From contig CP055307.1 of the NCBI GenBank assembly GCA_013374835.1, forward strand, positions 813,304 to 877,303: 64,000 nt of DNA, written 5' to 3'. Shown here piece after piece: positions 178 to 53,768 of the stretch (the stretch's first letter is position 1; each line of letters starts with the position of its first letter). The notes under the pieces are model-generated. The model was not told where the DNA came from and did no database searches. It was given only the letters and a program-made list of their open reading frames with translations. The position numbers and the translations under genes were made by a program. This DNA comes from Candidatus Woesebacteria bacterium (lineage in GTDB: Bacteria > Patescibacteriota > Microgenomatia > UBA8517).

Positions 178-894
178 ATGGGATTATCAAAAACATTTCA
201 TGAAACTATCGGTGTTGGTATTGCAAAAGCAAGAGAAGCTGCTGCAAAAAGAAGATTAAAGGAATTAGAGCCAGGAGAACACTTAGTAGAACCAATGCCT
301 GTATATATAAGTCAATTTGCAAATGCAGATAGAAATCTAATTGAAGGGTTTTATAGACGAATTAAGGATAAAGTTGCAGCAGAAAGATTCGGAGCCGAAG
401 ATCTAAACCAATTTAGCTATTGGGCGTGGAGATCTTGTGGCATCGCTTGTATCCAGGCAGTACTTCAGACAGTCTATGAATACCGTGGTGATAAATTTGA
501 ACTAACTACAATGGATTTGATTCGAGAGGGGTTAGAGTTGGGTAGATATGATATTGAAAAAGATGTCGGTTGGTATCACAAAGCCTTAGTCGATCTTTCC
601 CGTAAACACGGATTGGAGAGTTGTATGCAAAAATTTATTCCCGCGCCCGAGATAGCTTTAATTATATCAAATAATAATTATGTCATTTCTTCAGTAAAAA
701 GTAATAGCGGTGGTCATTTGTTGCTTTTATATGGTTTTAAATTAAAGAGAAAAGACGAACTTGTGGGTTTTTGGTATCACGATCCTAATAATTTTAAAAC
801 CGATGGCATGAACAGATTTATATCCAAAGAAGAATTCAACAAATTGTCGACACGCAGAATTATAAGGATATCTTTAAAGAATCAATTGGTTTAA
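178..894 (+). CDS. papain-like cysteine peptidase domain protein (peptidase C39-like)
   Basis: Cys in [12 protein letters not shown] and a downstream His ([10 protein letters not shown]) in the spacing expected for the C39-like fold. No signal peptide. No adjacent ABC transporter. Confidence 0.45.
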
Positions 895-2864
895 AGCTTG
901 GTTTTATTTAGAGAGAGAGCATTGAGAACGACTATTATTGAGCTAGCGCTCATGAAAAGAGCCCCCCATTCGGGTCTTAGTAATATCTCCCACGGGTAGA
1001 AAACTCCCGCTGCAGCTGGAATTGCAAGAACATTATAACCTGCTGCCCAGAAAAGATTTTGCTTTATCTTTGTGTTTACTATTCTTGCAAGCTTAATAGC
1101 TTTTACAACATCCATGATGTTACTTTTTACAAGAATTATTTCTGCCGACTCTATGGCCACTTGAGTTCCTGCTCCTATTGCAATTCCCACATGAGCTTGA
1201 GTTAGGCTTGGTGCGTCGTTTACTCCATCCCCTACCATAGCGACCACGTTATTCTTTTTCTGCTTCTGAAGTGCCTTAATTTTTTCAACTTTTTCGTCGG
1301 GCAAAACCTCTGAATAAACCGTATCTATTGAAAGCTCTTTTGCCACTTTTTCGGCAACTTCCTTTTTATCGCCAGTAAGCATTGCTACTTTTATCCCCAT
1401 TTCGTGAAGCATTCTAACGGCTCTTTTTGACTCCGGACGTATACTATCCTCAAGAGAAATTTCGCCAATGAACTTTTTGTCTCTAGCTACTAGGACTTCA
1501 GTTTGAGAGAGTTTTTCTTCAAGTTTAGGAATTTTTATGCCGTATTTTGCCATCATTTTCTTGTTTCCCATCAATACTCTTGATCCACTCACAATTCCTT
1601 CTGCGCCTTTGCCGGGGATGGATTTGAAAGATTTAACAGGATTTATTCTAAGACCCCTTTTTTTTGCTTCTTTTACTATTGCCTTAGCTATTGCGTGCTG
1701 AGAGTGGGATTCTAGAGAAGCTGCAAGTGCAAGTGTAGTGTTGTTGGCTACTTTTGATACTTGGAATTCGCCTTGAGTCAGAGTTCCTGTTTTATCGAAA
1801 ACAATGTAATCTATTTTTTTTAAAGCTTCAAGGCCTTTCATGTCTCTTACTAATATTCCGTTCTTCGCTGCAATAGCGGACGAAATTGTTGTAACAGTGG
1901 GAATGGCAAGACCTAATGCGTGCGGGCAGGCTATTACTATCACAGCAATTGCGAGCGTAACTGCAAATACCGCGCTTTGTCCTGACACCGCGTACCAAAA
2001 AATAAATGTGCCAACGGCTATTGTTATTGCGGTGAAGGTTAAATATCTTGCTGCTTTATCTGCAAGAGCTTGAACAGCAGGTTTTGAATTCTGAGCAACA
2101 CTTACTAAATCCATTATTTGAGAAAGGGCTGACTCTTTACCTGTTTTGGTTATTTTAACCGTCAGGCTCCCATTTTGGTTGATGGTGCCACCAATTACAC
2201 TACTCCCCTTTCTTTTTTCAACAGGCACAGATTCACCTGTAAGCATTGATTCGTTTACCAAAGATTCTCCGCTTATGACCACTCCGTCTGCCGGTATGCT
2301 TTCGCCCGGCTTAACTAAGACAAGGTCGCCTTTTGAAAGAGACGAAGTATCTATATCAATAATTTCTTTGCCCATAATTTTGTGCGCCTTGGAAGGAATG
2401 AGCTTTGCAAGCTCTTTTAAGGCTCCACCTGTTTTGGATACTGCTCTCATTTCCATCCAATGTCCGAGCAGAAATGCCGAAACCAATGTTGATATCTCCC
2501 ACCAGAGTGACTCTGCCGGAAAAAGAAAAGTGCTTGAAGCCGAAAATAAATATCCCGAAATAACAGCCAAACTGACAAGAGTCATCATTCCGAAGTTTTT
2601 TGTTTTAATTTCTTCTTTTGCCGCTTCAAAAAAGGGCGTGCCGCCATAAAGCGATACCGCCGTACCAAGAAGAAAAAGCGCTAAATTTTTATATGGAAAG
2701 TTTATTGCAAAATTAAACCACTCGCCTATTTTTGGCGAAAGAAAGAGTATGGTAACGGTAAGAGGAAGAGTTATTAAAAAGCGCCTTCGGAAACCTTCTG
2801 CCATCGATCGATGGTGATCTCCATGATTTACGTGCGTATGGCTATGGTCTTTCATGCTTGGCAT
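891..2864 (-). CDS. copB: heavy-metal (copper) translocating P1B-type ATPase, CopB-like subtype
   Basis: DKTGTLT phosphorylation motif, GDGVNDAP hinge, TM6 CPH motif (CPHALGLA), TM8 MSASS, and a His-rich N-terminus ([12 protein letters not shown]). The start overlaps the upstream rhodanese gene by 13 nt. Confidence 0.9.
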
Positions 2865-4048
2865 GCACCTCTCCCTTGGTTACTTTGATAGGGTAAATCC
2901 CCTACTTCTTTGTATATTCTCGCAGCTCCTTGCGCCGATGAGTAATCATTCCCCAGAGCGGTTTTTGCATCTACCGTATCCCATTTTATACCCTGCCTTT
3001 CGAAAAAAGTTGCCAAATATAAATATGTGTCAGGAAACCACATTGAATTCAGAGATAGAATGTATTTGTAAATTTCTCCCTCGCTTTTCCCTTCTGATAC
3101 AAGGAGTTCTATCACTGCAAGCGCCGCCATGCCGTGATTGCAATCCGGGAAGGCTGTGTGATTGCCACAGCATGGTCTATAAATATTTGAGGCTATTTCA
3201 TAGACTCTTTGCTGCTCGTCTTGGGTAAAATTTATCAAGTTAAGCTTGCCTAGATAATTTGTTGCATTTCCTTTGGATAGCGTCCAGCCTCCGGTTGATG
3301 CGAAGTTGCCTTTGGTGTCTTTGTAGGTAGTTCCCATAGGGCCTACTTCATATACTAAGCTTCTCTGAGCAAGTCCCAATGCCCAAAGGGTATTGAGAAT
3401 AAAGCGACTATTTTGATTATCAATCTTAATCAAGCTGTCTGAGCCTTTTGTCAGTATAAGCCTTTGTTCGTCAGTAAGGCTCATGAGTTCTCCATATTTT
3501 TGGTAATCTATCACGCCTGTTTCGACCAACTTCTTGGCTGTATTTTTCCAACCAACCGGAAGTGTTACCCCGTCTTGCGGAGCTATTTTATTTACTAACT
3601 TTGACAGGTCAAGCGTTTGGTATCCCGCTTTTTTCCATCCTTCCATACCACCTGATAAGTAGCTTACGTTTTTGTAACCTAAGCCCTTTAGTGTCTGAGC
3701 GGCTTTTTTACTCATGGATCCGGTTTTGCAATAAAGAATAATTCTAGCTTCTTTATCTTTAGGAAGCTTTTCCTTACTTGCAATTAAAAAATCATATTCT
3801 ATAAATAAATCTGTCTTTTCGATTTCACCCTCATAAGGAGTGTGGACGTTTATAAAAATAAAATCTTTGTTTTGGAGATTATCGCTAAGCTCTCGTATTG
3901 AAATATCTGAGACTCGATTTTTGTCTTTGTTAATCAAAACTCCCGATCGCGTTGCTAATAGCATAATACCCGGAAATACGGTGCCTAAAAGGATAATCTT
4001 TCGAAAACTAAACTTATGAAGTTTTTTTGTAAATTTATTAGATAACAT
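2852..4048 (-). CDS. membrane-anchored rhodanese-domain protein with a Cys-rich C-terminal domain of unknown function
   Basis: N-terminal TM helix. Rhodanese active-site region is [15 protein letters not shown]...GGMEGW. A roughly 250-aa C-terminal domain carries [14 protein letters not shown]. Translationally coupled to copB. Confidence 0.6.
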
Positions 4049-4571
4049 AATTTATTAGATAAAAAACAACAAAACTTAATAAAAGCATCGCACCAAGACT
4101 AAAAATTATCGGCTGATACGGGAAAAGAACCTTTCCTTTTGATTTTTTAATCGCTTGGTTTATAAGATCCGTAGAATAAAAGATGGCTCCGCCAAAAACA
4201 ACACCGAATACCAGCTTTGGGAGATTTAAGATTAAGCCGTTGTGTTCATTTACCAGTCCGAACTTATAAAAAGAGAGAACGGTGAGTATAAAAGTCGCAA
4301 GATATATTACAAACGATTGCATAGGGATAAAGCGTTTCTTTAGTGTATTTGCAAACCAGAGGCTCATTGCCCCAAGAAATGCCGCAAACCATATGCCCGT
4401 TATGGAGTCGTCTATTCCCAATATTCTTGAGAAAGAAAGGCCGGCTCCGGCACCGGCTACGCAGAGAGGACAATGGGCATGTGCCAAAGGCGGATTTAAA
4501 AGTGAAAGGTTAAAAATAAAAAAAAGCTGAAAAAAAAGAACAAAAATATACTTGAGCATTGAATTTTTCAT
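4038..4571 (-). CDS. polytopic membrane protein with HAHCPLC motif
   Basis: Several hydrophobic helices and HCPLC near the first helix. Overlaps neighbours by 11 nt and 7 nt gaps, so operon context supports it. Confidence 0.5.
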   Translation of the reverse strand: MKNSMLKYIFVLFFQLFFIFNLSLLNPPLAHAHCPLCVAGAGAGLSFSRILGIDDSITGIWFAAFLGAMSLWFANTLKKRFIPMQSFVIYLATFILTVLSFYKFGLVNEHNGLILNLPKLVFGVVFGGAIFYSTDLINQAIKKSKGKVLFPYQPIIFSLGAMLLLSFVVFYLINYVI

Positions 4572-4577
4572 TTATTC

Positions 4578-5072
4578 TCAATTTACTACTGTGCCCTCAA
4601 ACTTTAATTCCTTTATGCCTTCAGGATCTGAAAAGAAAAGCCAAACAATTCTTTCAAAATATCCCATGCCCTCAGATCCATGCGCCGCCGGGTCGAATTC
4701 TACTTTAACCGTCGCCACTTCATCGGCTGGAATATCTATATTGATTGGAGGATTTTTGTCAGTCGCGTGCTCCATTCCGAATAATTTTGACTCCTTACCA
4801 TTTATCGAAATAGAAGCATTAGTGCACATGCATGAAGTTGCTATTTTTTTTAGCTTTATAGATTTTCCCGATTTGTTTATTACCTTGTATTCTTTTTTTA
4901 CAAGTCCACCGTTTATTGGGACATTGCCTAAATCATAAGACGCGGGGTCTACGCTAACTGCGCCCACTTCGCCCAAAACTTTATTTTTGCCATCATTAAA
5001 TGTAGAAATACCTACGATTGAAAGAAATGAAATAATAATAAGAAATAAAAATGTTTTAATGTCTTTTCCCAT
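4578..5072 (-). CDS. secreted protein, DUF1573-like (TSCxCT motif)
   Basis: N-terminal signal/anchor followed by a beta-rich domain with TSCMCTNASI, resembling the conserved SCGCT of DUF1573 family proteins. Confidence 0.45.
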   Translation of the reverse strand: MGKDIKTFLFLIIISFLSIVGISTFNDGKNKVLGEVGAVSVDPASYDLGNVPINGGLVKKEYKVINKSGKSIKLKKIATSCMCTNASISINGKESKLFGMEHATDKNPPINIDIPADEVATVKVEFDPAAHGSEGMGYFERIVWLFFSDPEGIKELKFEGTVVN

Positions 5073-5343
5073 TTTTTTCCGACTTTCTAAAAACGGATAC
5101 TATTTCTTCAATTAATTTCTTCTTTTTTGCAGGAGGCGAGCTGATTTTATCCAATACGCATGTCTCAAGGTGTCCTCTTAAAATTATTTCATCTACTTTT
5201 TTAAGTGCTGCCTGGACTGCTTGAGATTGATGGATGATATCGGGACAGTACGCCTCTTCTTCAACCATGCGAATTACTTTTTTTAGGTGTCCGTCAATTA
5301 TCAAAAGCCTTTTAGATGTTTGTTTTTTGATTTTATTATTCAT
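5056..5343 (-). CDS. csoR: copper-sensing transcriptional repressor, CsoR/RcnR family
   Basis: YCPDIIHQSQAVQAALKKVDEIILRGHLETC gives C-x24-H-x3-C ligand spacing, as in Cu(I)-CsoR. I moved the start to the ATG at 5343, which is preceded by the G-rich SD GGGGGGGGTAGGG. The ORF track began at an upstream TTG at 5364. Confidence 0.8.
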   Translation of the reverse strand: MNNKIKKQTSKRLLIIDGHLKKVIRMVEEEAYCPDIIHQSQAVQAALKKVDEIILRGHLETCVLDKISSPPAKKKKLIEEIVSVFRKSEKNGKRH

Positions 5344-5346
5344 CTT

Positions 5347-5404
5347 ATTCCCTACCCCCCCCAAAGGGATATTAAATATTAAAAATAAATCTTTAGTTTG
5401 TCAA
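5347..5404 (-). promoter_or_regulatory. consensus sigma70 promoter (TTGACA-N17-TAATAT) with GC-rich pseudo-palindrome/G8 tract in the 5'UTR of csoR; putative CsoR operator
   Basis: Minus strand reads TTGACA (5404-5399), a 17-nt spacer, TAATAT (5381-5376), then ATCCCTTTGGGGGGGGTAGGGAAT (5370-5347) directly before the csoR ATG. Inverted TCCCT/AGGGA arms flank a G8 run. Confidence 0.55.
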
Positions 5405-5410
5405 TGCTGA

Positions 5411-5836
5411 TTATTCAACTACCAGCGTTCCTTCCATTCCAAGCTGTCTGTGATTGCCTATATCGCAGTAGAATGTGTAAATTCCAGGCTCCGCTTCGAA
5501 ACTAAATTCCATACCACTTTTAAGGTTTTCTTTAACTCCCAGCTCGTCTATCACAAAAGTGTGAATACCGCTGTTTTCCGCTACTTTGATAGTAATTTTC
5601 GGACCTTTTACCGTAATCTCGTTTGGTTCAAAGAAATAATTGCCTGATCTTATTTCAACCATTTCTATTTCAGCTTGATCGCTTTCCGCAGACTCTTTAT
5701 CAACATTTTCCCCTACCTCTTGATTGCTAGTAGTCATAAAAACATTTTGATTTCCTTTACCTTTAAAAACATAAATTCCTACTAATAGCAGCACTATTAC
5801 ACCAAGTGCTACTATAATGCCAGTATTTTTAATCAT
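5411..5836 (-). CDS. membrane-anchored cupredoxin (azurin/plastocyanin-like type-1 copper protein)
   Basis: N-terminal TM anchor. His in SGIHTF. C-terminal FYCDIGNHRQLGM gives C-x4-H-x4-M, the azurin-like ligand spacing. Confidence 0.75.
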   Translation of the reverse strand: MIKNTGIIVALGVIVLLLVGIYVFKGKGNQNVFMTTSNQEVGENVDKESAESDQAEIEMVEIRSGNYFFEPNEITVKGPKITIKVAENSGIHTFVIDELGVKENLKSGMEFSFEAEPGIYTFYCDIGNHRQLGMEGTLVVE

Positions 5837-5852
5837 CAGCTATCACCCCCTT

Positions 5853-6335
5853 TTAATCTAGATATTTATCCGGGTTTTTTTTGAACATATCTAAACAAGT
5901 TTTTTTACAAAAGTAGAATTGACGTTTTTTATACTTATAAGAAAACGGTGCTGTTTTGGGACACAATCTTGTTTTACAGACAGGATCGTGCGCCAAAGGG
6001 ACAAGATCACTCATTTTTTTATTTAAGATTTTTTCGAAATCTGTATTTTTGTATTTTTTGATCAAAAACTCACGTATAAGGCTTGTTGATTTAATAAAAT
6101 TAGGATCTGAAATTTTATAGAAAACATTTTTGCCTTTTTTATTTGTTTCAACAACGCCCGCGTCGCGAAGGATGCCAAGATGCTGACTTAGATTGGCTTG
6201 TGGAATATCGAGCATTTCTTCGATTTCTGCAACACATAGTTTTTTGCTTCCAAGAAGGCTTATTATTTCCAATCTTTTAGGGTGGCTTATGGCTTTAAGA
6301 AGATCAGCGTGGAGTTTGAATACTTGATGATACAT
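5853..6335 (-). CDS. ArsR/SmtB-family HTH regulator fused to a C-terminal Cys-rich YHS/TRASH-like metal-binding domain
   Basis: wHTH region LCVAEIEEMLDIPQANLSQHLGILRDAGVV. C-terminal tail CKTRLCPKTAPFSYKYKKRQFYFCKKTCLDMFKKNPDKY. Confidence 0.75.
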   Translation of the reverse strand: MYHQVFKLHADLLKAISHPKRLEIISLLGSKKLCVAEIEEMLDIPQANLSQHLGILRDAGVVETNKKGKNVFYKISDPNFIKSTSLIREFLIKKYKNTDFEKILNKKMSDLVPLAHDPVCKTRLCPKTAPFSYKYKKRQFYFCKKTCLDMFKKNPDKYLD

Positions 6336-6377
6336 ATTCGATATTTCGAATATATTACTTTCTAAGTTTTAAGTCAA
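6334..6377 (-). promoter_or_regulatory. promoter-operator cassette copy 1: TTGACT-N17-TATATT overlapping perfect palindrome ATATTCGA-TATT-TCGAATAT at the ArsR-like start codon
   Basis: Minus strand: TTGACT (6377-6372), 17-nt spacer, TATATT (6354-6349). The palindrome at 6334-6353 runs into the ATG at 6335-6333. The cassette lies in the last codons of ccdA. Confidence 0.5.
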
Positions 6378-7086
6378 TAAGCGCTTCTGAATTTTTTAAA
6401 ACAAAAGCCGAGAGAGTTCCGTATATACCAGTTAACATTAAAACGCCGAAAATTATTAATAATATACCGGATATTTTTTTTATATTTGGCCCGTATTTAT
6501 TTAGTATTTTTAACTTGGGGTAAAAAAAATCAAACGACAATCCGATTAATAAAAAGGGTAAAGAAAGACCCAGCGAAAATAAAAAAAGAAGAATTAGCGC
6601 AGAAGAAAAGGCTTGGGAAAAACTTATCCAAAGAAGTATTGTTGCCAAGACAGGTCCCACACACGGGGTCCATGAAAAAGCAAAAAACGCGCCAAGAATA
6701 AACCCTCCTGCTAAAGAGAATTTTGTCGGCCTCCGGTTTATAGAATAAGTTTTGTAGAATAAATCTATCTTTATAAATTCACCTAATAAAAGCCCCAGAA
6801 ATATAATTAGTACTGCCGAAACTAATCTAATGAATTCGCTATACATCGCTACGGATCTGGCTAGCGAATTTATTGTTGCTCCCATTATAAAAAATACCGA
6901 AATAAAACCCAGAGTAAAAAGTACTGCGTTTTTTAAAAATATTATTTTTGATTTTTTGTTTCCAATACCCGACGCTGAAAGATAGCTAACATAAATGGGG
7001 GCTATGGGGACTAAACAACCCGCAAAAAAAGTTAAAAAACCGGCAATAAATGAGGTCAAAAAATTAACGATCGAAATCGGAGGCAT
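6355..7086 (-). CDS. ccdA: cytochrome c-type biogenesis / thiol-disulfide transporter CcdA (DsbD-beta family)
   Basis: Six-plus TM helices with the conserved Cys-containing motifs FLAGCLVPIAPI and SWTPCVGP. Confidence 0.8.
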   Translation of the reverse strand: MPPISIVNFLTSFIAGFLTFFAGCLVPIAPIYVSYLSASGIGNKKSKIIFLKNAVLFTLGFISVFFIMGATINSLARSVAMYSEFIRLVSAVLIIFLGLLLGEFIKIDLFYKTYSINRRPTKFSLAGGFILGAFFAFSWTPCVGPVLATILLWISFSQAFSSALILLFLFSLGLSLPFLLIGLSFDFFYPKLKILNKYGPNIKKISGILLIIFGVLMLTGIYGTLSAFVLKNSEALIDLKLRK

Positions 7087-7091
7087 TAAAT

Positions 7092-7829
7092 TTAATTAAG
7101 CATTGCGTCAACCGCGCTTTTTAGCTGATCAAGCGGTATAGCTCCGGGAATTAGTTTTGTTTCTCCTGTTTCAGTATTTAGGAGTATATTTCCAGGCGTG
7201 CCGGTAACACCAGCACGGACACCCGAGTCGTAGTCAGCACTTACCAGATCTGCCGTTTCGCCCGAATCAAGACATGTTTGGAATCCTGCTTGATTTAATC
7301 CAATTTCTACAGCAAAATCAGGAAGAAGTGCTAGATCCAGACCATTATTCGCCGGGGTTACTTCGAATATTTTATCTATATATTGCCAAAAAGCTTCTTC
7401 TCCACCAAGCTTTCCTGCGCATTCTGCCGCCTCTGCCTCTTTAGGCGCTTTTGAATGTAGCTGCTCCAAAGGAAAATGCCTATAAACCCACATAACTTGA
7501 CCATTATACTCCTCCATTAACCTTTGTACAGTTTCATGAAAGTTCTTACAAAAAGGACACTCAAGATCCGAGTATTCTATAAGCGCTAACTTAGCACCTC
7601 TATCGCCTCTTACCCAATCTTTATCTGTGACTGGATCGACATCTTTTGCTATAGGCTCGACGGGAGCTGTTGGATTATTTTTTAGCGCATTCGAAGCTTC
7701 ATTTTTGGAAAGCACTTGCCCCTTTTCCATCATTTTTACTTTTGTCCAGAGGCTACCGATTATAAACGACCCAACAACAAGAGCGATAACCAGTAAGTAA
7801 ATGAAGGCATTGTTTTTGTTAATATTCAT
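7092..7829 (-). CDS. membrane-anchored thioredoxin-fold thiol:disulfide oxidoreductase (DsbA/TlpA-like, CPFC active site)
   Basis: DLECPFCKNFHE CxxC motif in a thioredoxin-like domain. N-terminal TM anchor. I placed the start at the ATG at 7829; the track used an upstream TTG at 7871. Confidence 0.75.
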   Translation of the reverse strand: MNINKNNAFIYLLVIALVVGSFIIGSLWTKVKMMEKGQVLSKNEASNALKNNPTAPVEPIAKDVDPVTDKDWVRGDRGAKLALIEYSDLECPFCKNFHETVQRLMEEYNGQVMWVYRHFPLEQLHSKAPKEAEAAECAGKLGGEEAFWQYIDKIFEVTPANNGLDLALLPDFAVEIGLNQAGFQTCLDSGETADLVSADYDSGVRAGVTGTPGNILLNTETGETKLIPGAIPLDQLKSAVDAMLN

Positions 7830-7871
7830 ATTCAATATTTCGAATATATAAACTCTTTTAACCCATGTCAA
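7828..7871 (-). promoter_or_regulatory. promoter-operator cassette copy 2: TTGACA-N17-TATATT overlapping palindrome ATATTCAATATTTCGAATAT at the thioredoxin-like gene start
   Basis: Minus strand: TTGACA (7871-7866), 17 nt, TATATT (7848-7843). The 20-bp palindrome at 7828-7847 differs from copy 1 by one base and again overlaps the ATG at 7829-7827. Confidence 0.5.
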
Positions 7872-7878
7872 CTACCAA

Positions 7879-8610
7879 TTACTCAATATGCGCAAGGACA
7901 TACATAAGAGAAATGCCGAGAATAAAAATGGCGAAATAGATAAGAGATTTTTTGAGACTTGTTTCATTTCTTATTTCTGGCATTAAGTCTGATGAAGCAA
8001 TATATATAAATCCTCCTGCTGCAAAGGGTGTCAGAAATTCTATAAATATATATCTATAAGAGGAGATATAGTAGCCCATCAAACCACCTAAAACAACCAT
8101 AAGAGCGACACAAAAATTGAGGATAAGAGCCTTGGATTTTCCCCACCCTGCATAGAGAAGTACACCGAAATCACCGATTTCTTGAGGTATTTCATGTAGC
8201 GCGACTGCTACGACCGTAACCCAGCCGAGTCTTACATCAACCAAAAAACTTGAAGAGATAATAAGCCCGTCGATAAAATTATGAACAGAATCTCCTATCA
8301 AATTCATTATACCCATCGCATGGCGATCGCATTGTCCTTTATGGCAGTGGCGCCAATGAAAAATTTTCTCAACCAGAAAAAAAACGATAAATGAAAACAA
8401 AACTAATAAAAATGCCTTTTCTGCTTCGAAATTTTCAAGAGATGCTGGAAGAAGATGAAGAAATGCGCCACCCATAAGAGATCCTGCTGATAAAGATATC
8501 ATATAGAATATAGCTCGCTCAAGCGTTTTTGTGGCAATTCCAAGAGTGAAAATCCCAATCAAAGCCCCGGACGATATTAGAAATGTGGAAAAAACTATAT
8601 ATAAAATCAC
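7879..8610 (-). CDS. zupT: ZIP-family divalent metal (zinc/iron) transporter, ZupT-like
   Basis: HNFIDGLII and HEIPQEIGDFGVLL signature helices of ZIP transporters. Confidence 0.8.
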   Translation of the reverse strand: MILYIVFSTFLISSGALIGIFTLGIATKTLERAIFYMISLSAGSLMGGAFLHLLPASLENFEAEKAFLLVLFSFIVFFLVEKIFHWRHCHKGQCDRHAMGIMNLIGDSVHNFIDGLIISSSFLVDVRLGWVTVVAVALHEIPQEIGDFGVLLYAGWGKSKALILNFCVALMVVLGGLMGYYISSYRYIFIEFLTPFAAGGFIYIASSDLMPEIRNETSLKKSLIYFAIFILGISLMYVLAHIE

Positions 8611-39773: not shown

Positions 39774-40329
39774 TATAATTTATACTTATATGATACTTAA
39801 AATTGTTGATATAAAACATCCTGCTCTTCGAAAAAAATCCAAAGAGGTGGTAAAAATCGATAAAAAGATAAAATCTCTTGTTTCGGACATGAAAGAAACT
39901 CTGCTTTCTCAAAAAGACCCTGAGGGGGTTGGGCTTGCAGCACCCCAAGTGGGGAAAAATTTGAAAATATTTATCATGCACTATCCAGAAGCGGGGATAA
40001 TTACAAAAGAGGTTATAAACCCAAAAGTTATTAGTATATCTAAAAAAAAGATAAAACCTAAAAACAAAAGGAACGAAAATATACTTGAGGGCTGTTTATC
40101 AATCCCCCATTTTTATGGACCTATCAAGCGCGCATCTAAAATCACTATTGAATATCAAAATATTGAGGGGGAAAAAATTAAAGAACAGTTTAGCGGTTTT
40201 CCCGCACAAATAGTGCAACATGAGATGGATCACCTTATCGGCGTGATATTTGTTGACCACATACTTAAAAACAAATCTCCGCTTTATCATATTAAAGGCA
40301 ATGAGTGGGAAGAGGTAGAGCTAACATGA
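39763..40329 (+). CDS. def: peptide deformylase
   Basis: GVGLAAPQVG, EGCLSIP and QHEMDHL motifs. Confidence 0.85.
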   Translation: MNSDIIYTYMILKIVDIKHPALRKKSKEVVKIDKKIKSLVSDMKETLLSQKDPEGVGLAAPQVGKNLKIFIMHYPEAGIITKEVINPKVISISKKKIKPKNKRNENILEGCLSIPHFYGPIKRASKITIEYQNIEGEKIKEQFSGFPAQIVQHEMDHLIGVIFVDHILKNKSPLYHIKGNEWEEVELT

Positions 40330-47318: not shown

Positions 47319-47389
47319 AGGTCTGTCGTTCAGTGGTAGGACCCGGGTCTCCAAAACCCGTGACGGGGGTTCGATTCCCTCCAGACCTG
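47319..47389 (+). tRNA. tRNA-Trp (anticodon CCA)
   Basis: Acceptor AGGTCTG/CAGACCT, anticodon stem CGGGT/ACCCG with loop CTCCAAA, T-arm GGGGGTTCGATTCCCTC, discriminator G. Found in the classic position upstream of secE-nusG. Confidence 0.9.
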
Positions 47390-49082: not shown

Positions 49083-49613
49083 TTACTGTTTTATCTTTAG
49101 GATAGCTGGTTTTAGATTTATCCAAAGGTAATCGCGTTCGCCCATGCGCGCCGCGCTTTTTGCAAGTGGAATTATCTCAACTTCACTCTTATCACCTATT
49201 ACTTTAAATTTAAACGAAGCGAGCGTTTTTGCACCCTCAACAATCTCTCCATTAAAAGCCATTCCATAGCTTACTTTGATTAATCCGAGAGAATTATCTA
49301 TTTTTTCTTCGAGTTTGTTTGTTTTACTCCAGATTGTGCCTTCGCGAACAGACACCAGCTCGAGTGTTTTTGGATCAAAACTTATAGTAAATGCTACTGC
49401 GTGGAGAAAAGAGTTTTTTCCGACTCCCTTTTTAAGGGATATTGTAAGCGAATTGGTCTCCCCTTTTTGCCAGGCTTTTTCGTGCCCGCTAAAAACCGCA
49501 TCAAAGTCATTTTCTGAATCATTGTTTTTTGAAGAAAAAGTAAAATAAACGAAAATAGAAAATGCGATAATCGCTATTCCAATCAAAAAAATTTTTATCC
49601 GAATTTTTGGCAT
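49083..49613 (-). CDS. signal-anchored protein with cohesin-like beta-sandwich domain
   Basis: N-terminal anchor, then ...HAVAFTISFDPKTLELVSV...GLIKVSYGMAF...ASFKFKVIG, a cohesin-like sequence pattern. Confidence 0.45.
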   Translation of the reverse strand: MPKIRIKIFLIGIAIIAFSIFVYFTFSSKNNDSENDFDAVFSGHEKAWQKGETNSLTISLKKGVGKNSFLHAVAFTISFDPKTLELVSVREGTIWSKTNKLEEKIDNSLGLIKVSYGMAFNGEIVEGAKTLASFKFKVIGDKSEVEIIPLAKSAARMGERDYLWINLKPAILKIKQ

Positions 49614-53144: not shown

Positions 53145-53768
53145 ATGGATACAGATCAGAATAAAAAAGAAGAAAGCGTTTACGAAAAAGGCACGGGAAA
53201 GAAAAAAATTCCCGGACATATTGTAGTTAGCAAAACTTCGGATGAAAATGCCAAGTGGTATGTTGTGCACACTGCAAGCGGACATGAAGTAAGAGTTGCC
53301 GAAACTTTAAGGCAGAGAGTTGAATCTATGAATTTAAAAGAGCGGATTTTTGAACTTCTTGTGCCTACTCAGGATAGGGTGATAGTAAGGGGAGGCAAAA
53401 AGGCAAATATAAAGGAAAAAATTTTCCCGGGGTATTTACTTGTAAAAATGATATTGGATGATAATAGCTGGCTTGCTGTAAGGACAACTCCGGGGATAAC
53501 GGGATTTGTGGGAATTGGAAATCAGCCCACACCCCTTTCCGAAAGCGAGGTTTCAAATATCCAAAAGTTTATTTCCTCTCCCGCTCCGAGATTCAAAACG
53601 AGGCTTTCTGTGGGTGAAGCTGTCAAAATTACGGACGGGCCTTTTAGTGATTTTCTCGGGACAATAAACGAAGTTGATGAGGAAAAAGGAAAGGTAAAAG
53701 TGCTTATTTCTATTTTTGGAAGAGAGACCCCCGTTGAACTTGACTTTCTTCAGGTAACGAAGGTCTGA
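53145..53768 (+). CDS. nusG: transcription termination/antitermination factor NusG
   Basis: NGN domain [12 protein letters not shown] and C-terminal KOW ([18 protein letters not shown]). Confidence 0.9.

Follow-up and report, generated by a model that had tools for sequence, protein, structure and literature searches.

A probable autoregulatory CsoR operator of type-2 form before the copper-efflux operon of a Woesebacteria-like bacterium

The GC-rich element that directly precedes csoR in the 64,000-nucleotide stretch of DNA analysed here (hereafter the window) is very likely, on the sequence evidence, an ordinary autoregulatory operator, of a known kind, for the CsoR repressor encoded immediately downstream. 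The idea of a CsoR autoregulatory operator in the form of a GC-rich pseudo-palindrome with C/G tracts goes back to the original prediction, and is backed by the boxes of relatives as well as by the published operator architecture. Counted against it are a degenerate right arm (GTAG), a weight-matrix score below the median, an Ile at position 4 of the RLXR motif and a promoter match at chance level.

Layout of the csoR region

The features of the region are the following.

5853-6335, minus strand: ArsR-family HTH fused to a YHS/TRASH metal-binding domain, two genes upstream of csoR
5411-5836, minus strand: cupredoxin, between the ArsR-YHS gene and csoR
5399-5404, minus strand: predicted -35 hexamer TTGACA in the promoter of the csoR operon (consensus; conserved in three lineages)
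5376-5381, minus strand: predicted -10 hexamer TAATAT, with a 17-nt spacer from the -35 (10/12 consensus matches together with TTGACA)
5353-5372, minus strand: putative core CsoR operator ATAT-CCC-TTT-GGGGGGG-GTA, a type-2-like pseudo-palindrome (weight matrix, spacing)
5355-5362, minus strand: G8 tract, made up of the right-arm G-tract of the dyad (G7) and one further G (alignment with locus L024)
5347-5354, minus strand: 3' extension TAGGGAAT, a half-site-like repeat outside the core dyad, with an AGGGA at SD distance (comparison with relatives)
5056-5343, minus strand: csoR, 95 aa, Cu(I)-sensing repressor (PF02583, ligand residues, homolog N-termini)
4578-5072, minus strand: DUF1573 protein with a CMC motif, downstream of csoR
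4038-4571, minus strand: 177-aa membrane protein (HCPLC), downstream of csoR
2852-4048, minus strand: 398-aa rhodanese fusion, downstream of csoR
891-2864, minus strand: CopB-type P1B ATPase (His-rich N-terminus, CPH motif), downstream of csoR

Read along the minus strand, TTGACA (5404-5399) is followed by 17 nt, TAATAT (5381-5376), TTAAT, the 24-mer ATCCCTTTGGGGGGGGTAGGGAAT (5370-5347), AAG and the ATG of csoR (5343-5341). The TTGACA-17-TAATAT promoter and the G-rich element before csoR are present on this strand as first described, with some details to be amended: TAATAT and the 24-mer are 5 nt apart and not about 7 nt, and the 'aataag' placed before the ATG counted AAT twice, as AAG alone separates the 24-mer from the ATG. 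The promoter is predicted to be of the sigma-70 type (TTGACA-17-TAATAT at 5404-5376), with transcription expected to start at about 5368-5371. The whole operator, ATATCCCTTTGGGGGGGGTA plus the extension TAGGGAAT (5372-5347), would then cover roughly +1 to +25 of the predicted transcript. It extends from near the predicted start as far as the SD-like AGGGA, in agreement with the overlap of both elements that had been proposed. The GGG of TAGGGAAT ends 6 nt before the csoR ATG, and the AGGGA may serve as the SD sequence.

Three closely related lineages were compared: lineage A with the window, L001 (100% identical) and L002 (99.96%, from a different SRA run); lineage B with L003, L083, L084 and L138-L141 (~93.5% DNA identity); and lineage C with L142. 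Both hexamers are unchanged in lineages A, B and C, whereas 3 spacer positions are substituted in lineage C. Promoter-like sites as such are common (25 in 8.5 kb vs 23.3 expected), and a 10/12 match is not rare in DNA of 36% G+C. The stop codon of the cupredoxin gene lies just 7 nt from the csoR -35. A second promoter with TAGGGA as its -10 was considered for the window and rejected, as the ATTTAA 17 nt upstream of it matches TTGACA at only 2/6 positions.

The genes downstream of csoR (891-5072, minus strand) overlap or stand only 6 nt apart, and from these overlapping or near-abutting reading frames the genes from csoR to copB are presumed to be co-transcribed. Their order (csoR, DUF1573, 177-aa membrane protein, 398-aa rhodanese fusion, P1B ATPase) is kept in dozens of Microgenomates loci (L004-L036 and others). 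The C-terminal ~250 aa of the rhodanese fusion are rich in Cys and gave no Pfam match. On the other side of csoR, the ArsR-YHS gene possesses its own promoter-like TTGACT-17-TATATT at 6377-6349, and its product is a candidate for a second metal sensor, encoded immediately before the CsoR unit. No terminator-like site was found between the ArsR-YHS/cupredoxin unit and the CsoR unit. Genes for a CcdA/DsbD-type membrane protein, a DsbA-like thioredoxin and a ZIP metal transporter follow directly upstream (6355-8610, minus strand), so that these and the copper genes form an 8-kb metal and thiol-redox homeostasis cluster.

The CsoR protein and its start codon

The csoR product belongs to PF02583, an all-helical domain of about 90 aa (E = 2.7e-22; 79.4 bits vs a cut-off of 22.8; profile positions 2-78 of 78). 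Cys33, His58, Cys62, Tyr32 and Glu80 are invariant in 39 sequences, that is, the window CsoR and 38 homologs. Among solved structures, M. tuberculosis CsoR (2hh7, E = 1.4e-12) is the closest, and the AYC...HLETC of the window protein matches its Cu(I) ligands position by position in the alignment, indicating a copper-type CsoR and not a protein of the RcnR, InrS, FrmR or CstR type. The x-C-H-C fingerprint (C36/H61/C65 in M. tuberculosis) and the second-shell Tyr/Glu are both found in the window CsoR, and it lacks an N-terminal His such as RcnR or InrS have. Among the DNA-binding residues, R12 (R1) and Q39 are conserved; position 4 of RLXR is Ile (RLLI), as it mostly is across the clade, and the Arg at this position (R4) is also absent from M. 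tuberculosis CsoR (RLKT). No co-variation of this position with the arm sequence of the operator was observed, and proteins of the RLAR type (for instance, at the L007 locus) share the ATAT arms.

Alignment with the N-termini of the 38 homologs places the csoR start at ATG 5343. Given this alignment, and because in lineage C the upstream start falls out of frame, a 102-aa version starting at TTG 5364 was discarded. Public gene calls nevertheless use TTG 5364 as the csoR start (in lineage B, an upstream ATG), and thereby yield a 102-aa product whose N-terminal residues (MGGVG...) are translated operator sequence. The calls concerned (window 5344-5364, minus strand) are P0001, P0108, P0005, P0006, P0030, P0048, P0069, P0078 and P0085; a look-up of P0001 on contigs returned no match. 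Similar artefactual N-termini occur in many homologs (YPPGGD, IPPGGI, YPRGGD and IPLGGT).

Operator architecture and known CsoR/RcnR sites

The 24-mer ATCCCTTTGGGGGGGGTAGGGAAT is unique in the 64-kb window, with 0 occurrences expected by chance, and exact, 3-mismatch, regex and weight-matrix searches detected no further operator copies in the window. The regex gave weak matches at 47354 (inside tRNA-Trp), at 39917 (overlapping long ORFs and probably coding) and at 53423. In a same-length alignment with L024 (TATCCCCATGGGGGGGATAGGGATA), the eighth G of the window tract occupies the position that in most relatives is taken by the A of the right-hand ATA arm. The G run therefore forms an arm of the dyad rather than serving as a spacer for TCCCT and AGGGA. 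Those inverted TCCCT/AGGGA arms around the G8 do exist as a pair, as was first noticed, yet they are not the conserved dyad, since the G tract itself is a half-site arm; the conserved dyad is ATATCCC(C) vs the G-tract plus (A/G)TA. The two G/C tracts of the window site are separated by TTT (CCC-TTT-GGGGGGGG), within the 2-4 bases of type-2 sites, and are strongly asymmetric (C3 vs G8). Its left ATAT arm is perfect, its right arm is GTAG vs the consensus ATAT and keeps TA alone, and the ATAT-13 spacing is kept. Like type-2 sites, which lie on the promoter of csoR or of a copper-efflux operon, it is placed on the csoR promoter and is conserved at orthologous loci.

The G8 at 5355-5362 is the only G8 run in the window, and two G7 runs elsewhere (28867 and 52394) fall in apparent coding sequence. 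Such a run had been called statistically odd for an AT-rich genome, a view that does not hold: 0.61 are expected by chance per 64 kb, at least one appears in 37/100 dinucleotide-preserving shuffles, and G/C runs of at least 7 are present in 27/97 of the relatives' boxes. As the G8 run and the promoter match are both within chance expectation, function is not established by sequence alone, and it is the comparative evidence that raises the element above chance.

Operators of the CsoR/RcnR family have been divided into two types by Iwig and Chivers, as summarised in PMC3902906. In type 1 sites, AT-rich inverted repeats flank a single G/C tract 3-8 bases long, while type 2 sites, the class of the known CsoR sites, possess two tracts 2-4 bases apart and bind two tetramers each (PMC3902906). 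The G tracts take an A-like conformation that is selected by the protein (PMC3902906). With two tracts in C3-TTT-G8, the window site has the form of a type-2 CsoR operator. The type-2 sites of Streptomyces lividans are csoR-4375, copZA1 and copZA2, the validated copZA2 site reading ATACCCCCTAGGGGTAAGG; the experimentally validated Streptomyces consensus is ATATACCCCTNAGGGGTATAT, with ATAT arms 13 bp apart, and external extra GTA dyads have been described for copZA1 (PMC3902906).

The window site shares with those of S. lividans the 13-bp distance between AT-rich arms, which frame a C-tract, short spacer and G-tract. As here, one S. lividans site is located upstream of csoR (autoregulation) and others control a copper P-type ATPase; moreover, the right half of the window site, GGGGTAGGGAA, resembles GGGGTAAGG of copZA2. 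In contrast to Streptomyces, the tracts of this clade abut the ATAT arms directly (TAT-C/G-ATA, not TAC/GTA), and the central spacer is nominally 5 and often filled by an extra C or G; the window itself differs further in its asymmetric C3/G8 tracts and GTAG right arm. An arm distance 4 bp greater than that of canonical CsoR sites was considered and discarded, because alignment with the full Streptomyces 21-mer gives an identical ATAT-13-ATAT.

Compared with type 1 sites, the G8 is at the upper end of the 3-8 range of tract lengths, and the proposed A-form shape readout would apply to it. The site differs from that of E. coli RcnR (TACT-G6-N-AGTA) by the second tract, CCC, with TTT between, which gives it the type-2 form expected for CsoR rather than RcnR; likewise, the His-rich set of RcnR is absent from the window protein, which has the x-C-H-C fingerprint. 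The likeness to M. tuberculosis CsoR consists in the identical AYC...HLETC and in an autoregulated operon that has csoR first and ends in a copper ATPase. The half-sites of the M. tuberculosis cso operator contain two G tracts each (GGGGTGGGATAC), similar to G8-TA-GGG in the window. On the other hand, up to 22 bp separate the inverted GTA/TAC arms of the M. tuberculosis site (PMC3902906), and the window has a single left C tract.

The box in relatives

The genome scan gave 80 related loci and the metagenome scan 55. An identical CsoR protein is encoded in two independent Logan assemblies, and among named relatives Candidatus Woesebacteria bacterium UBA1430 is the nearest (99% protein and 93.6% DNA identity). 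A C-tract/G-tract box is found close upstream of csoR in nearly all of ~95 non-redundant relatives, which are mostly Microgenomates/Patescibacteria. Many loci with a Woesebacteria-like gene order around csoR bear the title 'uncultured Gammaproteobacteria bacterium' (L005-L007, L012, L014, L020, L023, L033-L035, L039 and others), which is probably a placeholder or erroneous taxonomy of the MAG records.

From 50 non-redundant distant relatives that share the exact frame AT-CCC-N7-GGG-AT, with the window and its near-identical relatives left out, we obtained the clade consensus ATAT-CCCC-N5-GGGG-ATAT (ATATCCCC-N5-GGGGATAT). The weight matrix built on these sequences gives 25.7 bits for 5372-5343, the top match in the 64 kb and within the training range (18.4-37.5), albeit under the training median of 31.6 bits. 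The only other match above 12 bits in the window is the same site on the opposite strand, the next unrelated one reaches 11.4 bits, and the maximum in shuffled windows is 13.8. These results place the window site in a conserved family of csoR-linked boxes, as its sole member in the 64 kb. The 11.4-bit match (ATATCCCTTAAAAAGGGAG, 49413-49442, minus strand) is regarded as chance, as it scores below the shuffle maximum.

The position of the box relative to the promoter follows two discrete patterns. In 27-31 relatives it comes right after the -10 hexamer, as in the window, with TTGAC ~30 nt before the box. In 32-38 relatives (32/95 in one count; for instance L010, L015, L021, L025, L027, L029, L031, L034 and L035) it fills the spacer between -35 and -10; TAGGAT/TAGGGT stands as the -10 in 23/32 of these, and the start codon follows 6-14 nt beyond. 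Such an arrangement implies a leaderless or near-leaderless csoR in which the external half-site doubles as the -10. An extension comparable to TAGGGAAT (G-tract-(N)TA-RRG) is present in 20/95 distant relatives. Since the box is not transcribed in the spacer-embedded relatives, its conserved function is suggested to reside at the DNA level.

Proposed mechanism

At low copper, apo-CsoR would bind the C-tract/G-tract pseudo-palindrome, with two tetramers per site as in characterised systems, and would recognise the AT-rich arms together with the A-like shape of the G tracts. The bound repressor would stop RNA polymerase from initiating or from escaping the promoter, and it may act in addition as a roadblock to read-through from the upstream cupredoxin gene. 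Cu(I) at Cys33/His58/Cys62 would free the repressor from the DNA, and its release would derepress csoR and the genes for the DUF1573 protein, the membrane protein, the rhodanese fusion and the CopB copper ATPase. The binding, stoichiometry and copper response of the window CsoR are thus pictured by analogy with the characterised proteins.

Alternative explanations

One variant departs from the ordinary operator in the manner of binding. The grammar of the clade may combine a single half-site on the left with a long G tract and, outside the dyad on the right, a second half-site, which is the SD in the window and the -10 in the leaderless relatives. It seems unlikely, however, that this grammar reflects CsoR binding other than by two tetramers on one dyad and that, in addition, the G8 gives rare spacing variants and hence a bet-hedging derepression of copper efflux.

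We consider it very improbable that the G8 is a slipped-strand, phase-variable tract that switches csoR and the copB operon at the level of expression or translation, as the original prediction had envisaged. The tract does lie in a regulatory region, and homopolymers of 8 G are long enough for slippage in principle. Poly-G contingency loci are known in Neisseria, Haemophilus and Campylobacter, and the 8-G homopolymer in a regulatory region resembles them; the window differs in that the assemblies show no length polymorphism and in that the position of the tract is neutral for reading frame and promoter spacing. The G8 is identical in all loci of the three lineages listed above (up to ~6.5% DNA divergence, more than 10 independent samples), even though the neighbouring bases vary: between lineages the flanks differ by CCCTTT vs CCCCAT, an inserted A, AAT vs AAA, and TAGGGAAAAAG vs AGGGGAAAA. 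The suggested search for G-tract heterogeneity among strain variants returned G8 in every assembly obtained for lineages A-C and no length variant, with the limit that consensus assemblies can miss rare within-population variants. The 102-aa product P0108 (MGGVGKKM...) occurs exactly on 24 contigs; it is made only if the G8 keeps the upstream ATG in frame, and these contigs must therefore carry an in-frame G8. The 95-aa MNSKIKK form, which would be expected from a G7 or G9 allele, is absent from the 90% cluster.

Geometry also speaks against such a switch. With the tract situated between the -10 on one side and the SD and ATG on the other, a change of length would hit the geometry of the operator and not the frame, the promoter spacing or translation, contrary to the effect on csoR and copB translation first suggested; the frame of the upstream in-frame TTG/ATG is itself not conserved in lineage C. 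Between species, the lengths of the C and G tracts vary solely within a fixed AT-13-AT frame and trade off against the spacer, indicating that the total length of the box is constrained.

An RNA-level role, in which a 5'-UTR hairpin (CCC/GGG or UCCCU/AGGGA) masks the SD and controls translation, is likewise hardly probable. The transcribed palindrome can fold (MFE -7.8 kcal/mol) and AGGGA stands at SD distance from the ATG, but the fold is no better than that of shuffled sequences (z = -0.33; 69/200 shuffles fold at least as well), the Rfam search gave no match, and in 32/95 relatives the box sits untranscribed between -35 and -10.

There is similarly little probability that the box is the operator of another regulator, for instance the ArsR-YHS protein (5853-6335), a second regulator of metal type encoded nearby. 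The box accompanies csoR in dozens of loci in which the ArsR-YHS gene was undetected within the fetched flanks, and it matches the published architecture of CsoR-family operators. Finally, a chance GC-rich stretch without function, to which the G8 alone or the promoter match alone would be no obstacle, is extremely improbable and already contradicted by the comparative data, given a weight-matrix score far above the shuffles, a site unique in the 64 kb and a box conserved at orthologous positions over a phylum-level range.

Conclusions

The autoregulatory CsoR operator described here leaves the understanding of how CsoR works unchanged. Our literature search found no papers on CsoR operators in Patescibacteria, and the clade motif with its two promoter architectures is hence a modest but useful annotation result. 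It corrects a recurrent mis-annotation of the csoR start codon, by which the operator is translated into protein, and supplies a clade-wide model, ATAT-CCCC-N5-GGGG-ATAT, that is usable for predicting CsoR regulons in Patescibacteria. For the copper-efflux operon of an uncultured Woesebacteria-like bacterium with a reduced genome, it provides a confident cis-regulatory annotation, comprising promoter and repressor site, in organisms for which almost no transcriptional regulation has been documented experimentally.
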